DNA from: Candidatus Bathyarchaeota archaeon
GTDB lineage: Archaea; Thermoproteota; Bathyarchaeia; Bathyarchaeales; Bathycorpusculaceae
Reading direction: 5' to 3'
DNA: 64,000 nt
Assembly: GCA_963833575.1 (NCBI GenBank)
Contig: CAWHXY010000006.1
Location: 96,001-160,000, forward strand
Shown: positions 32,937 through 54,482 of the stretch, piece by piece
Layout: each line of letters starts with the position of its first letter
Numbering within the stretch: the stretch's first letter is position 1
Notes under the pieces: model-generated
What the model was told of the DNA's origin: nothing
Database searches by the model: none
What the model saw: the letters and a program-made list of their open reading frames with translations, nothing else
Position numbers and translations under genes: made by a program

Positions 32937-33643
32937 TTAAGAGTTTACATCCTGTGGAACAAACCGCCGCAGATTCTTAAGCGACTGCAGTTTCTCTTTC
33001 TCGCCGATTTTTGCTTCCTGCACTGACTGTTTTAGGATTTGAATAGATTCATCCATTGCTTTGCGGTCAACAGGATAAGGAACACCATCTTTGCCTCCAT
33101 ATGCAAAACTAAATTTTACAGGGTCCTCCCAACTTGGCTTTTCGCCGTAAACTAACTCGGCGACAAGAGCTAAACCCCTAACTGTCGCGGGTCCAACACC
33201 TTTGATACTCAAAAGCTCCTCGTAATTGTTTGGTTGGAACTCGTAAACTCGGCTTAGCGTATCCCAATTAATGTTACGCGGCATGTTTAGCGTGTTTAAG
33301 GTTTGTTGCCATGGGTCATCGGTCTTGGGTAGCCAATTTTGAAGTGAATATTGGTTTAGCGGTTTTGTGGTTGATTGGATCAGGTTCATGAGTTTGCGTG
33401 TGGGTTCCTTTGCCAAGTCTACGCTGGCTTTTCTGGCAGCTTCGCTATCTTTTGCTACCATGTTCAGGGCTGTTTCCCGTTTTACGTTTCCAACTATTGC
33501 ATTGTGTGGTTCAACAGCAAAGTCCGCTACATTATCCGACAGCCAATGATACCGTCTTGCCGAACGGTCATTTTCACTCATACCCTGCTGAATCACAGCC
33601 CACTGCTCATCCCTAGTTACTAAGAAAGCGTGGTGATAAAGCT
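32937..33643 (-). pseudogene. DUF763 protein, 3' part (interrupted by element E1)
   Basis: LYHHAF..WAVIQQGM, ARRYHW, GVGPATVR, FSFAYGGKDG.P.PV; joins in frame to the 5' part at AAAGCT. Confidence 0.92.
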
Positions 33644-33882
33644 CAAAGCATGTCAGTAGTGATATCTCCCGCAATATTTCCCCTTTTTTTGATAAGCACG
33701 AGGCAAATAGGAAACTCCGTTTTGCCATAGCATCTCTCCAGGGAAAGGTAGAGAGCTCGATCTGGAAAAGACGCCTTCAAACGGCTCTAATTATCAGGGA
33801 TGAGCTCCTGGAGCATGGTTACAAGTGGCAAGCCGATAGGATCGATAACTGGATCCATAGGCTCCAGGAAAAGGAGGTTTGA
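33640..33882 (+). CDS. E1 ORF1, start-less while integrated; its 5' end (ATG 37928) lies at the other end of the element
   Basis: NRKLRFAIASLQGK..WKRRLQTAL..DELLEHGYKWQA homologous to 50004-50282; no in-frame ATG after the host stops at 33634-33639. Confidence 0.75.
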   Translation, partial: SSKHVSSDISRNISPFFDKHEANRKLRFAIASLQGKVESSIWKRRLQTALIIRDELLEHGYKWQADRIDNWIHRLQEKEV

Positions 33883-33885
33883 GCT

Positions 33886-34215
33886 CTGGAGCATAGAATT
33901 AGAGTTTTTTGCCCTGCCTGTATCGATTTGATACCCGATTTTTGGCATGGATCTAGTCAGGATTGGTATAAAGCTCTCGAGGCCGTACATGGCCTTCCTT
34001 TCCCTCAGTGGTTACTTACTGCTTTGGAGCACGAATTTGAGCATGGTTACGACAGATCACACCTGACACAGATCAGCGATTCAGTCAAACACAAACGATA
34101 TCCAGCTAAGTTTCCATGGAGGCTTAAGCTGAAGGATCCAGGGGTTCCCGGGCCTGGAAAAGTCTTGCAGGCCGAAGGCCTGACCTCTGAGAGAAGAGAG
34201 GAGGGCTCTTTCTAG
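33886..34215 (+). CDS. E1 ORF2 hypothetical with CPAC knuckle
   Basis: GGAGG SD then CTG (start uncertain); C-terminal LQAEGLTSERREEGSF identical to E2 ORF2. Confidence 0.55.
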   Translation: MEHRIRVFCPACIDLIPDFWHGSSQDWYKALEAVHGLPFPQWLLTALEHEFEHGYDRSHLTQISDSVKHKRYPAKFPWRLKLKDPGVPGPGKVLQAEGLTSERREEGSF

Positions 34216-35190
34216 TTGGCAGCCAAATACATGCTGGAGCAAGAAGGCAGCTTCACTTTCATGAGGCCTGACTCGATCGAGTGCAGGATCGTAACCTGCA
34301 AACATTATGATGCCTGCAAAAGCGTTGGCGAAAAGTCGGGTATCCTGCCTAAAGCGAAGTCGATTTTAGAGGTTTTGGGCCTCGATTGGCAACTGCCAGG
34401 TCATGGCAAGGCCTATGATGATTGTGGATCCTGGAGGTACAGGGGTTGCTTAGACGTCTATTCTCACGTGCAGAATGAGCTGGATCAGAGCATCAAGGAA
34501 AAGATCTATGTTGAGTGGTATCATCGCAGCTGTGTGAGGGCCGAGTGTCCGATCTGCTATGAGAAGTGGGCTGGGAAGGAGGCTGCTAAGATCGAGCATC
34601 GTCTAAAGTACTTCTGGAAATATGGCAAGGTTATCCATGTGACCGTTTCACCGTCAGAAAAAGACGCTGTTAACATGCCTTTTGAGAAATTGATCGCAAA
34701 AATGTATCGGATAGCTAAACAGAGAGGTTTGAAAGGTGGTTCTTGTATTTGGCATCCCTGGAGAGAGCACGATAATGGATCATGGTATTTCTCGCCCCAT
34801 TTCCACGTTCTAGGCTTTGGATGGGTGCGAAACACTAAAGAGGGCTTTGAAAAGGATGGTTGGTTAGTGAAAAATATCCAGGATGGCAAGAAGGAAAGAT
34901 CAGTTTTCCGCACGGCCATGTATCAACTAAGCCATTGTGGGATCAGCAAAAATCATAGGCCAGTTACCTGGTTTGGAGTTTGCAGTCCAGCTGCTAAGGA
35001 AAAAGTCAACGTGCCTCCAATGGAGAAAGAGAAACACTTGTGTCCAGCTTGCGGAGCTGAGCTAGTACAACTTAGGTATTTTGGCTTGGAGGATCAGCTG
35101 CCAGATCGAGAGGAGAACGCATGTGCCTGGCTAGATCCTGGAGAGAACTGGGCAGAGTTCCAGCCCTCCAGGTATGGAGATGAAGGGTAA
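34216..35190 (+). CDS. HUH rolling-circle replication initiator, IS91-transposase/SNJ1 RepA-like
   Basis: Zn motif SCVRAECPIC, motif I HVTVSP, HUH PHFHVLG, motif III YQLSH, C-terminal CPACG. Confidence 0.85.
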   Translation: MAAKYMLEQEGSFTFMRPDSIECRIVTCKHYDACKSVGEKSGILPKAKSILEVLGLDWQLPGHGKAYDDCGSWRYRGCLDVYSHVQNELDQSIKEKIYVEWYHRSCVRAECPICYEKWAGKEAAKIEHRLKYFWKYGKVIHVTVSPSEKDAVNMPFEKLIAKMYRIAKQRGLKGGSCIWHPWREHDNGSWYFSPHFHVLGFGWVRNTKEGFEKDGWLVKNIQDGKKERSVFRTAMYQLSHCGISKNHRPVTWFGVCSPAAKEKVNVPPMEKEKHLCPACGAELVQLRYFGLEDQLPDREENACAWLDPGENWAEFQPSRYGDEG

Positions 35191-52599: not shown

Positions 52600-52881
52600 G
52601 TGAGAGAGTACAGTAATGGCTTCTCTGTTAAGCTAACAGATGAGGAGCAAGCAAGCTATGAGAGAGTTCTCAGTTATTATAAGGCCGTTGATCCTTCTCG
52701 ATCAAAAGCTTTCAGGTTGTTGCTGAGGGCGCTGGAGTTGGAGATCTCCAGGCAATCTCAGAAGGCCTATTGGAGTAACACCGAGTTTGATCCTCCCAGG
52801 GCTGAACCAAGCCATGACGTAACAATCAGTTCTGAGGAGGAGTTCCTGGAGAGAGAAGCAAAGGACACCTGGACTGAGTAG
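52600..52881 (+). CDS. E2 RHH-like regulator
   Basis: Identical to 36155-36436. Confidence 0.65.
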   Translation: MREYSNGFSVKLTDEEQASYERVLSYYKAVDPSRSKAFRLLLRALELEISRQSQKAYWSNTEFDPPRAEPSHDVTISSEEEFLEREAKDTWTE

Positions 52882-53050
52882 GGCAAAAGTAATATCCATA
52901 AAGGCGTTATTATTGATCAAGCAGCTGAGGCTAGCTGCATGGCTCCAGGAGGATTTAAGATCTTGAAACCGTCTTTTTCTTCCTTTTGGAGCCATCCAAT
53001 TTTAACTATTTTTGTCAATTGTGAAATAGGTCTAAAATCGGACATAGTGG

Positions 53051-53131
53051 GTAAAAAGTAATATCCGTTTGATGGGCTTTTGTGTCCATTTTGTTTATAA
53101 GTAAAAAGTAATATCCGTTTCATGGACTTTT
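53051..53131. repeat. E2 31-bp direct repeat x2 upstream of the integrase
   Basis: Same units as E1, at 53051 and 53101; partial copy at 52885-52897. Confidence 0.85.
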
Positions 53132-53195
53132 CTAAAAACTGTAGATGTTAAGAGCCTTGACGTTGAATAAGTCCTTCAAGGTTTCAAGATTTAAA

Positions 53196-54482
53196 ATGAG
53201 TGCTGATTTAGCTCAAATTTCAAGTTCAAGTAACAAAACCAGCTCAGCTCCTCAGTGTCCTGAGTGTAGTTCTCATGAAGTAGTTCTTGATGGCCATCGT
53301 TACTCCTGGGGCCAGGATATTCAGCTTTTCAGATGTAAATCATGTAAGCATAGGTTCTCAAACGGACATAACAGTTCAAAAACTAATCAAAATACTATTA
53401 GATCTAACCAATTAGGCGCTAAATTAGAGGCGAAAAAATTGGTCGTGCTGCCACATAGAAAACATGTCGGCACGGGAGAAGTCACTGCAGAACATGAAGC
53501 ATTGCTTAGAGTTTTTGAAGGTTGGCTACGGAAAGAAGGCTACAACAAAAACTGTTATCCAAACAACGTAAAGACATTGCTATACCTTGGGGCCAATCTT
53601 TTAGATCCAGAGGATGTCAAAGCAAAAATCGCTGATCACAACGTCAAAAACGGAATGAAAATGCAACTTTGCTACAGTTATGAAGCGTTTCTACGGATGA
53701 ACAAAATGACTTGGACGCGACCAAAAAATGGAAAAGGCTACAAACAAGACGAGATTGATCCGTGGATTCCACTTGAGGTAGAGCTGGATCAACTGATTGC
53801 AGCTGCACATAGCAAGCGGATGGCAGTTTTTCTACGGACTCTTAAGGAAACTTTCACTGATCCAAGTGAGGCACTACAGATTGAGAGCCATGACATTGCA
53901 GACAATTCAGTAACGATCAGACATCCTGTTAAGAAACATCGTCCACGAACGCTAGAAGTTTCACCTCAGCTGATTGCAGATCTAAATAGCCTCTCACATG
54001 ATTCAGATCGGATTTTTGATTGCAGATACAGCACTATGATCAGCGGTTTTATTGCGTTGCGTAGGCGTGTCGCTCAAAGAACCCAAAACGACAGAATAAA
54101 CTACATCGAGTTACGGAGCTACAGACATTGGGCTGGAACAATGATTGCAGAAATGTCAAACGGTAATCCAATGTCAGTAATGAAGCTGCTAGGCTTAAGA
54201 CGCATTGAAAATGCTATGAAATACGTTAACATCTGGAAATTGAGCTTCAAAACTGAGACTGAATGGCAATACATGGAAGTTACAACACCTGAAGAACTAA
54301 AGATTGCCTTGCTTGGCGGCTACCAACATGTCATCGACAAGTTTGGAGCTTCATGGTTTAGAAGACCTAAAAGAATTGCCATTGCTATTACACCGATTAG
54401 CCAGCGACCAGATGAACCACAATGTCCCCAGATAGAAACCCCGATTAATAAACGCGAACCTGCATTAAGAAACGCTTATTAA
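53196..54482 (+). CDS. E2 tyrosine recombinase-like integrase with N-terminal zinc ribbon and non-canonical catalytic residues
   Basis: N-terminus shared with the E1 integrase; ETFTDPSE, HPVK, LRSYRHW, LGLRRIENAMKY; stop codon overlaps attR. Confidence 0.85.
   Translation: MSADLAQISSSSNKTSSAPQCPECSSHEVVLDGHRYSWGQDIQLFRCKSCKHRFSNGHNSSKTNQNTIRSNQLGAKLEAKKLVVLPHRKHVGTGEVTAEHEALLRVFEGWLRKEGYNKNCYPNNVKTLLYLGANLLDPEDVKAKIADHNVKNGMKMQLCYSYEAFLRMNKMTWTRPKNGKGYKQDEIDPWIPLEVELDQLIAAAHSKRMAVFLRTLKETFTDPSEALQIESHDIADNSVTIRHPVKKHRPRTLEVSPQLIADLNSLSHDSDRIFDCRYSTMISGFIALRRRVAQRTQNDRINYIELRSYRHWAGTMIAEMSNGNPMSVMKLLGLRRIENAMKYVNIWKLSFKTETEWQYMEVTTPEELKIALLGGYQHVIDKFGASWFRRPKRIAIAITPISQRPDEPQCPQIETPINKREPALRNAY

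Follow-up and report, generated by a model that had tools for sequence, protein, structure and literature searches.

What kind of element do two sister insertions, here called E1 and E2, represent in a 64,000-nt stretch of a Candidatus Bathyarchaeota genome (contig CAWHXY010000006.1; this whole stretch is the window below)? Both are read on the + strand, E1 at 33638-37961 and E2 at 49892-54481, and a reading of the sequence alone had suggested that they could be among the smallest archaeal proviruses, or else satellites or plasmids. The answer that we favor, with a probability of roughly 70%, is that they are integrative rolling-circle mini-plasmids (cryptic integrated elements) of a Bathyarchaeia-like archaeon. 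Each is best read as the union of two parts. One is the minimal replicon of a widespread archaeal plasmid family, made up of a small upstream frame (orfA), two hairpins, and the initiator gene rep; the other is a cassette of Cys-rich open reading frames (ORFs), a 70-aa membrane protein (hyd), a ribbon-helix-helix (RHH)-like regulator, direct repeats, and a tyrosine integrase with a Zn ribbon.

A life cycle can be proposed from these parts. The integrase would excise a circle of 4318 bp (E1) or 4574 bp (E2); Rep would then nick the circle at or near GGTATCCTGCC, which lies toward the 5′ end of rep itself, with the hairpins just upstream as guides, and copy the circle by rolling-circle replication, with the RHH protein and the repeats probably controlling the integrase, copy number, or both. 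For E1, the orfA-rep operon would gain a start codon only after circularization, so that replication would switch on upon excision. In this scheme, hyd would be an accessory gene, not a capsid.

Boundaries, insertion sites, and integrases

E1 is an insertion inside a host DUF763 gene, and E2 is an insertion in the spacer upstream of a tRNA-Ala gene. Archaeal integrated elements mobilized by tyrosine recombinases are recognized by a direct repeat at each end, an unoccupied site in relatives, and a recombinase of their own, and all three were found for both elements (the recombinase by PF00589 in E1, and by phrog_216 and homology to the E1 enzyme in E2). The E1 core, AAAGCT, is common to both junctions (attL at 33638..33643 and attR at 37956..37961, + strand) and occurs once in the intact DUF763 gene of relatives, whose sequence runs uninterrupted over these six positions (...CCAGCTTTA(C/T)CACC...). 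Weak as the 6-nt repeat is, the boundaries of E1 are exact because relatives carry this uninterrupted site. Of 23 matches from other genomes of the genus and order, 22 have the gene in an unbroken frame of 357-418 aa, against 162 aa here; on the - strand the window keeps an N-terminal piece of 147 aa (37954..38397, Pfam profile positions 1-139 of 319) and a C-terminal piece (32937..33650, positions 137-319 of 319).

E2 is bounded by an exact 16-nt direct repeat, TAAGAAACGCTTATTA, at 49892..49907 (attL) and 54466..54481 (attR), and the host tRNA-Ala(GGC) gene, the sole Rfam match (54518..54595, + strand), starts 36 nt downstream of attR. The empty site is represented in 3 of the 11 relatives' loci examined (L039, L040, and L046), where the left flank runs through one copy of the core into tRNA-Ala without a break; over the stretch of core, spacer, and tRNA, L039 and L040 match the window at 130/130 positions. 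Repeats and empty sites in relatives thus bear out the element coordinates and exact att repeats first proposed, from which the circle sizes given above follow. Two relatives match the 52 nt from the E2 core to the start of tRNA-Ala (54466-54517) at 100%, against just 85-88% in their left flanks, and the core overlaps an A/T-rich CGCTTATTAAAT that could be the tRNA promoter, in which case integration would duplicate and preserve it.

The E1 integrase (36750..37925, + strand; 391 aa with an N-terminal Zn ribbon) matches PF00589 at 9.5e-17, phrog_1 at 8.3e-27, and an archaeal XerA model at 8.8e-19. Its E2 counterpart is a 445-aa ORF (53145..54482, + strand) whose start is likely the M at 53196; it matches phrog_216 at 2.2e-7 and returned only Zn-ribbon noise against the PDB. 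The two enzymes are 35% identical over 400 columns, with near-identical N-terminal 90 residues and very different catalytic halves, and the divergence of these halves fits the different att sites of E1 and E2. Each element has a 14-nt motif, GTGAYATCTCCCGC, at 12-16 nt inward of its left att core (GTGATATCTCCCGC at 33659..33672 in E1 and GTGACATCTCCCGC at 49919..49932 in E2, + strand; two matches in the window against 0.01 expected) and the motif is also found near the left boundary of a third sister element, L003; it could bind the Zn-ribbon N-domain that the integrases share. Integrases of the SSV type, in which integration splits int, were considered and set aside: the E1 gene ends 31 nt before attR, and the E2 gene, whose stop falls in attR and whose ORF would reach 480 aa in the circle, keeps 445 of the 480 codons, with only the C-terminal tail altered.

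The initiator, its relatives, and a candidate origin

Rep is encoded at 34216..35190 in E1 (324 aa) and at 50474..51424 in E2 (316 aa), both on the + strand, and the two proteins are 72% identical. The proposal that it combines a Zn finger, an HUH motif, and a single Tyr, in the manner of SNJ1 RepA, is supported by profile comparison, which places Rep among the initiators of the SNJ1 RepA / pZMX101 type. In hhalign the Rep profile aligns with SNJ1 RepA at 97.6% (E 3.2e-12, 172 columns), with pSCM201 Rep at 98.5%, and with pZMX101 Rep at 98.4%, with motifs in register in each case; H195-F196-H197 and Y236 fall on the PHVH and Y-A-LSHC of SNJ1 RepA. Invariant in 39/39 aligned Reps are C70, C78, C106, C111, H141, H180, H195-F196-H197, Y236, C276, and C279, and C114 is conserved in 90% or more; the protein has an N-terminal Cys-rich (zinc) region in addition to the second pair, C276/C279. 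SNJ1 RepA itself is described as an HUH initiator of rolling-circle replication in the accessible part of PMC12642351.

The family is large and poorly represented in curated resources. Rep matches no Pfam or PHROG family, and SNJ1 RepA, pSCM201 Rep, and pZMX101 Rep have no Pfam family either. A word-based search gave 340 homologs at E <= 0.001, with a Pfam domain in 0/120 among the matches listed, and an exhaustive profile search gave 2471 representative clusters at E <= 0.001, 1790 at 1e-10, and 541 at 1e-30. A PDB profile search returned only a MarR row (E 0.47), tblastn against phages found no match, and IMG/VR held no relatives. Rep-Arvir (DUF7845), another candidate, belongs to a different fold and family, and no such Pfam match occurs in the E1 and E2 proteins.

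The Zn, HUH, and Tyr motifs also raise the question of IS91-like rolling-circle transposons moved by Rep-mediated transposition, an explanation that we regard as extremely improbable for E1 and E2. SNJ1 RepA is reportedly homologous to IS91 transposases, to judge by the title and citations of a 2018 article in J Gen Virol, and weak Zn_Tnp_IS91 matches occur in 3/39 Rep members (best E 0.19). The resemblance to IS91 noted at the outset therefore holds for the motifs shared with SNJ1 RepA; it does not extend to membership, as PF04986 is absent from the genome at E <= 1 and from the proteins. IS91 is not known to make target duplications, whereas E1 and E2 have tyrosine integrases of their own and duplicated target cores of 6 and 16 bp. 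The genome holds two copies at different sites with different integrase catalytic domains, free circular relatives exist, and each element carries at least eight ORFs including the integrase, rather than a single gene.

Evidence for a plasmid comes from the company that Rep keeps elsewhere. Genome collections yielded 22 further loci, in Bathyarchaeia, Nitrosopumilaceae, Nitrosotalea, Methanoperedens, Methanolliviera, Thermoplasmata, a Woesearchaeota bin, and two bacterial bins; in a metagenome scan, 421 of 483 pattern matches proved to be Rep relatives, and 80 were retained as loci. Exact terminal overlaps of 41-139 nt mark 22 of these 80 (41-141 nt when L009 is counted, one of seven short genome loci tested in this way; a 15-nt overlap in L058 was not counted). 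The circular Rep contigs measure 1.67-3.3 kb. Besides orfA and Rep, they carry between one and three small ORFs, whose products are Zn-ribbon proteins, acidic-tailed RHH-like proteins, and now and then a small membrane protein; none of the conserved genes is of capsid size. The closest relatives of the E1 and E2 Reps lie on circles of 2.2-2.7 kb with just orfA, Rep, and small ORFs, which points to plasmids. One metagenome contig of 4739 nt (L107) contains Rep and each of its other ORFs twice, in identical copies, as a head-to-tail dimer of a 2335-bp unit that could be a true multimer or an assembly effect.

Some members of the family are integrated or associated with integration genes. Integrase relatives stand near Rep in 10 of the 102 other loci, in Bathyarchaeia, Nitrosopumilaceae, and Methanoperedens, and L003, of ~4.9 kb with a 10-nt repeat, is the third sister element, found in a named Bathyarchaeota metagenome-assembled genome (MAG) of the host genus; att sites were looked for in locus L013 and not found. 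In a quick IQ-TREE phylogeny (SH-aLRT support only, midpoint root), E1, E2, L003, and five free circles form a clade with 99% support, within which E2 nests in an 11-row clade with the five circles, away from E1 and L003. The cassettes tell a different story: the accessory genes and the N-terminal part of the integrase (35225-37010 in E1 against 51678-53455 in E2) are 92% identical over 1793 nt, against 74% for rep. E1 and E2 are mosaics of replicon and cassette, and the tree placement together with the 92%-identical cassette shows that replicon and integration/accessory modules have been exchanged.

The inositol-3-phosphate synthase of the host shares 81-87% identity with that of three named Bathyarchaeota genomes, against 38-43% for other genomes. 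Within the host genus, Rep-family genes occur in 44/119 other genomes. A more distant Rep branch (ORFs of 323-457 aa, with partial profile matches of ~120 bits) is found in many genomes of the genus, often at two or three loci each, some with stop codons. Five of its loci were examined (L146-L150, in G008 and G360), and all five have an integrase-like ORF within ~1-3 kb of the distant Rep; three have a tRNA gene nearby (Ala-CGC twice, Lys-TTT once), and a ~53-nt block of 94-98% identity is common to all but L148. The 2.75-Mb assembly itself contains two Rep genes in all and no further fragments of E1 or E2, and a crude home-made finder detected no CRISPR array in it, leaving spacer evidence absent either way. 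Next to L003 lies an ORF for a 639-aa SMC-like ATPase (L003 3735-5654); beyond E2 and its tRNA in the window lies one for a 645-aa AAA_23 / SMC-Rad50-like ATPase (54940-56877).

A candidate double-strand origin can be placed within the 5′ end of rep. When 9-mers are ranked by how many of the 102 loci contain them, the top ones all fall in this single stretch, GGTATCCTGCC...GCGAAAAGTA, with copies of GGTATCCTGCC at 34339..34349 in E1 and 50597..50607 in E2 (+ strand). The 9-mer GTATCCTGC is present in 74/102 loci, against 48 and 34 for the best 9-mers of the catalytic motifs (C-Y-E and H-F-H, respectively). The peptide encoded at the motif, GILPxAKS, is the least confident part of the Rep model (residues 40-49, pLDDT < 50), and GILP allows many more synonymous codons than the catalytic motifs do. 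Since the 9-mer outnumbers the catalytic ones despite degenerate codons and a low-confidence peptide, the constraint is most simply on DNA. pZMX101 has the exact 10-mer 82 nt upstream of its rep, in DNA annotated as non-coding, and a version with two mismatches lies upstream of pSCM201 rep.

Hairpins accompany the motif. A double hairpin just upstream of rep, at 34168..34201 in E1, is identical in E2 (50426..50459; both + strand). Taken alone it folds no better than shuffled sequences (z -1.3). Across the family, perfect inverted repeats of at least 6 bp lie upstream of the motif in 34/61 distinct loci against 3/61 control stretches, the mean minimum free energy there is -23.1 against -15.3 kcal/mol in controls, and the stem sequences vary between loci. 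We read the hairpins and the motif as a candidate origin at which Rep may nick; alternatively, they may form an RNA-level control element for rep.

Upstream of the hairpins stands orfA, relatives of which precede Rep in 38/102 other loci; it has no Pfam or PDB family and is unrelated to the genes adjoining rep in SNJ1, pSCM201, and pZMX101. In E2 it is a 92-aa frame with a TTG start (50004..50282, + strand), as judged from the ORF list and an alignment of relatives. In E1 (33640..33882, + strand; 80 codons) it follows directly on a TAA and has no ATG, GTG, or TTG while integrated; in the excised circle alone, an ATG at 37928..37930 would join the frame to give a 90-aa ORF. A comparable arrangement is in print for SNJ2, whose replication operon is completed by excision and circularization according to the accessible part of PMC13107129. 

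The order of genes first proposed as common to both elements (orfA, variable ORF, Rep, Cys-rich ORFs, hyd, RHH-like ORF, direct repeats, integrase) holds, with reservations: the missing start codon of E1 orfA, the lack of database support for the RHH label, and an extra 70-aa ORF in E2 (51426..51638, + strand, from the ORF scan) that precedes the Cys-rich ones. All the remaining features likewise lie on the + strand. The variable ORF of E1 (33928..34215, 95 aa) is a doubtful gene, conserved with E2 only at the 3′ end that overlaps the hairpins. E1 has a Cys-rich ORF of 53 aa (35190..35351), with relatives in L013 and L058, and another at 35290..35652 of which ~97 aa are conserved with E2; the E2 counterparts of the pair measure 52 and 97 aa (51646..52097). 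The RHH-like ORF (36155..36436 in E1, 93 aa with a GTG start; 52600..52881 in E2) is nucleotide-identical between the elements (0/282 changed); it has no Pfam or NCBIfam match, and the label comes from reading the sequence. Direct repeats around AAAAGTAATATCC follow at 36426..36686 in E1, with 31-nt copies at 36606-36636 and 36656-36686 and a partial third at 36426-36452, and a repeat search found them likewise at 52871..53131 in E2. In the host DNA between the elements, 20 nt at 44766-44785 are 85% identical to the AAAAGTAATATCC-type repeat, possibly by chance.

The membrane protein and arguments against a plasmid

The gene hyd, at 35654..35866 in E1 and 52099..52311 in E2 (+ strand), encodes the same 70-aa protein with two predicted membrane helices in both elements. 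It has 135 homologs at 52-100% identity, in which the blocks KTPLG and ISGxLTAAAVSxAG are invariant. Its model is an alpha-helical hairpin (pLDDT 82) that fits the general shape of VP1-type proteins. Searches for a more specific relationship gave no Pfam or PHROG match, no row in BFVD by Foldseek at E <= 0.001 (the best rows being generic transmembrane proteins and holins), nothing by tblastn against phages and plasmids, and nothing in IMG/VR; the best ESM Atlas score, 0.81, was uninformative, and a cluster look-up gave one 'Zixibacteria' MAG label without context. Beyond E1 and E2, hyd is present in one of the 102 other Rep loci (L082), in 0/300 other genomes of the class, and in 1/119 of the genus. 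Since it is carried by a single other Rep locus, hyd is no core gene of the Rep family. That one copy in the genus is frameshifted; it lies at L133 9538-9861 (G386:C30), without this Rep and beside a RuBisCO-like gene, at the edge of an ORFan island of small ORFs that belong to no known family and encode winged helix-turn-helix, Zn-ribbon, and membrane proteins; the island may be another integrated element.

Several observations weigh against integrative rolling-circle mini-plasmids as the explanation, and hyd supplies the first. The E1 and E2 copies differ at 10 synonymous and 0 non-synonymous nucleotides, a sign of strong purifying selection; hyd is clearly important, and its function is left unexplained by a mini-plasmid. 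A minimal provirus or virus satellite, with hyd as its capsid or envelope protein, in the manner of spindle-shaped or pleomorphic archaeal viruses, or with a particle borrowed from a helper virus, would account for such conservation across 135 homologs and for the further frameshifted copy in the ORFan island of another genome. The hairpin is also the general shape of spindle-virus capsid proteins, including those of a Bathyarchaeia provirus (in the accessible part of PMC10848311), and spindle viruses with HUH Reps exist in the partial sources at hand: WyrdV4, WyrdV5, and the 9-kb DHSV-1.

We nevertheless think a provirus or satellite unlikely. The proposal that E1 and E2 encode one capsid-like protein comes down to a generic two-helix hairpin that lacks Pfam, PHROG, BFVD, phage, plasmid, and IMG/VR matches and is absent from 101 of the 102 other Rep loci, besides being so rare in the genomes of the class and genus. 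A place among the smallest archaeal proviruses is not borne out, as the elements have no virion genes and the closest Reps sit on plasmid-like circles of 2.2-2.7 kb. No AAA+ ATPase, second capsid, or adsorption protein was found among the 10 E1 and E2 proteins scanned, which upholds the absence of a packaging ATPase noted from the start, and the 4.3-4.6 kb are fully accounted for. As for a synteny of Rep, the 70-aa protein, and integrase, the link between integrase and Rep recurs (the 10 loci above), in contrast to that of hyd. Our best reading is that hyd is a mobile accessory gene rather than a capsid. Decidedly unlikely, by comparison, is a structural role in which hyd would enclose the 4.3-4.6 kb circle, by wrapping or budding, in a particle or vesicle (a 'plasmidion'); were this so, E1 and E2 would be the smallest integrating archaeal viruses or satellites known, and the 135 other contigs with hyd would be signs of a virus lineage in sediment archaea that has so far gone unseen.

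A second set of contrary points concerns replication. The Rep model is confident overall (AF2, pLDDT 85, pTM 0.76), and its structural matches to HUH folds are weak (VIA-align Z <= 4.4, residues 131-260) and interleaved with RNA-recognition motif (RRM) domains: HUH rows for this core at Z 4.0-4.3 include RepB, Vientovirus Rep, SIRV1 ORF119, Helitron, and parvovirus (MVM) NS1, AAV Rep and geminivirus Rep are also among the weak rows, and Foldseek gives 0 rows at E <= 0.001. Because the structural matches are weak and mixed with RRM, Rep is assigned to its family by sequence. No attP or excised form of E1 or E2 was seen. DNA run X1 (low-depth contigs holding 26% of sampled words, with large parts uncovered) gave no circular-junction contig, and one of its contigs bridges E2 attL in integrated form; in X2, a contig belonging to a related organism lacks the element and has 131 different letters in its place. 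Neither run has a bearing on activity or expression.

Moreover, pSCM201 was reportedly published in 2006, by its title, as a unidirectional theta replicon, which means that rolling-circle replication need not hold for every member of the Rep family. E1 and E2 might accordingly be integrative plasmids with a theta-type Rep, and pSCM201 Rep is indeed the best profile match (98.5%). Three points make this rather unlikely: the HUH and Tyr positions are invariant in 39/39 sequences, the conserved single-copy motif with its adjacent hairpins fits a nick site, and rolling-circle initiation is reported for another member of the family, SNJ1 RepA, in the partial source cited above (PMC12642351).

Contrary evidence of a third kind concerns the integrity of the elements. 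The E2 integrase has no PF00589 match at E <= 0.1 and is atypical at the catalytic positions aligned by BLASTP with the E1 enzyme, the first catalytic Arg and two His being replaced; these residues notwithstanding, E2 is clearly integrated site-specifically. In L003, the first canonical start in the orfA frame is a late TTG, and a TAA in the left end of L003 itself closes the frame; as E2 orfA has its own TTG, a start restored on excision is limited to E1, where the pattern could be chance, peculiarity, or decay. If E1 and E2 were immobile, decaying remnants that no longer excise or replicate, the missing start codon of E1 orfA in place and the atypical E2 integrase would both be explained. 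That they are remnants is very improbable, given that all other ORFs are intact, rep is full length, and changes in hyd are synonymous only; E1 also interrupts an otherwise conserved host gene with its core intact, which suggests a recent event. Integrative mini-plasmids thus remain our preferred reading.

Relation to known systems

The closest precedent is NitAQ6f-E2, a thaumarchaeal cryptic integrated element (Krupovic et al. 2019, PMC6563490). In the accessible text of that paper, it is integrated, has a tyrosine integrase and a rolling-circle initiator called homologous to SNJ1 RepA, uses short att sites (median 17 bp in Thaumarchaeota), and is classed as a possible plasmid or virus. It differs in host phylum, and orfA, the hairpins, the motif, and the 70-aa protein go unmentioned in that part of PMC6563490; E1, for its part, uses a 6-bp core inside a protein-coding gene. 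Whether the family had already been described thus has a divided answer: the kind is in print through this one thaumarchaeal element, as far as the accessible text of PMC6563490 extends, and a Bathyarchaeia family was not found in the literature searched. The family of Rep circles is likewise undescribed in the literature searched by full text, a corpus outside of which lie the supplementary maps of the PMC6563490 elements, which may bear on novelty.

Several features go beyond that literature: how large the family is, the existence of tiny free circles in it, the unit of orfA, hairpins, and motif shared with pZMX101, and the modular swap between E1 and E2. The evidence points to a very large family of 1.7-3.3 kb archaeal replicons without coverage in curated databases, ranging over Bathyarchaeia, ammonia oxidizers, Methanoperedens, and Thermoplasmata. 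The pair in the window also illustrates how one replicon family moves between free and integrated life by swapping integrase cassettes. To our knowledge, no plasmid or genetic system is available for Bathyarchaeia; the minimal unit of orfA, hairpins, and rep, with a candidate origin common to a cultivated haloarchaeal plasmid, offers a concrete starting point for a shuttle vector.

Among small hydrophobic-protein elements, satellites of the pSSVi/pSSVx type are likewise small, and they also have an integrase and a hydrophobic protein that is short and two-helical. Fusellovirus-like spindle viruses (Huangdivirus, Wyrdviridae, and DHSV-1) are alike in the same three respects, as far as the partial sources go. 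E1 and E2 differ from both in having no detected capsid homology and no AAA+ ATPase, and in that hyd is not linked to the Rep family. SNJ2 (Pleolipoviridae) resembles E1 in having an operon completed by circularization, as proposed here for orfA; in the accessible part of PMC13107129 it is a true virus with an unrelated initiator, Rep-Arvir (DUF7845, of Rep_trans-like fold).

The remaining comparisons are with bearers of the same Rep family. SNJ1 (Simuloviridae, AY048850) shares LPGxG, the Cys cluster, HUH, and Y-x-LSHC in alignment; it is a 16.5-kb icosahedral virus with capsid and packaging genes, maintained as an episomal provirus, and its RepA has 481 aa and no orfA relative. The plasmids pZMX101 (3.9 kb) and pSCM201 (3.5 kb) are small circular haloarchaeal replicons, and the former has the exact GTATCCTGCC motif upstream of rep; they differ in being non-integrative, with no integrase and with neighboring genes unrelated to orfA. 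Set beside these systems, E1 and E2 are Bathyarchaeia additions to the known small archaeal integrated elements with an SNJ1-type initiator.

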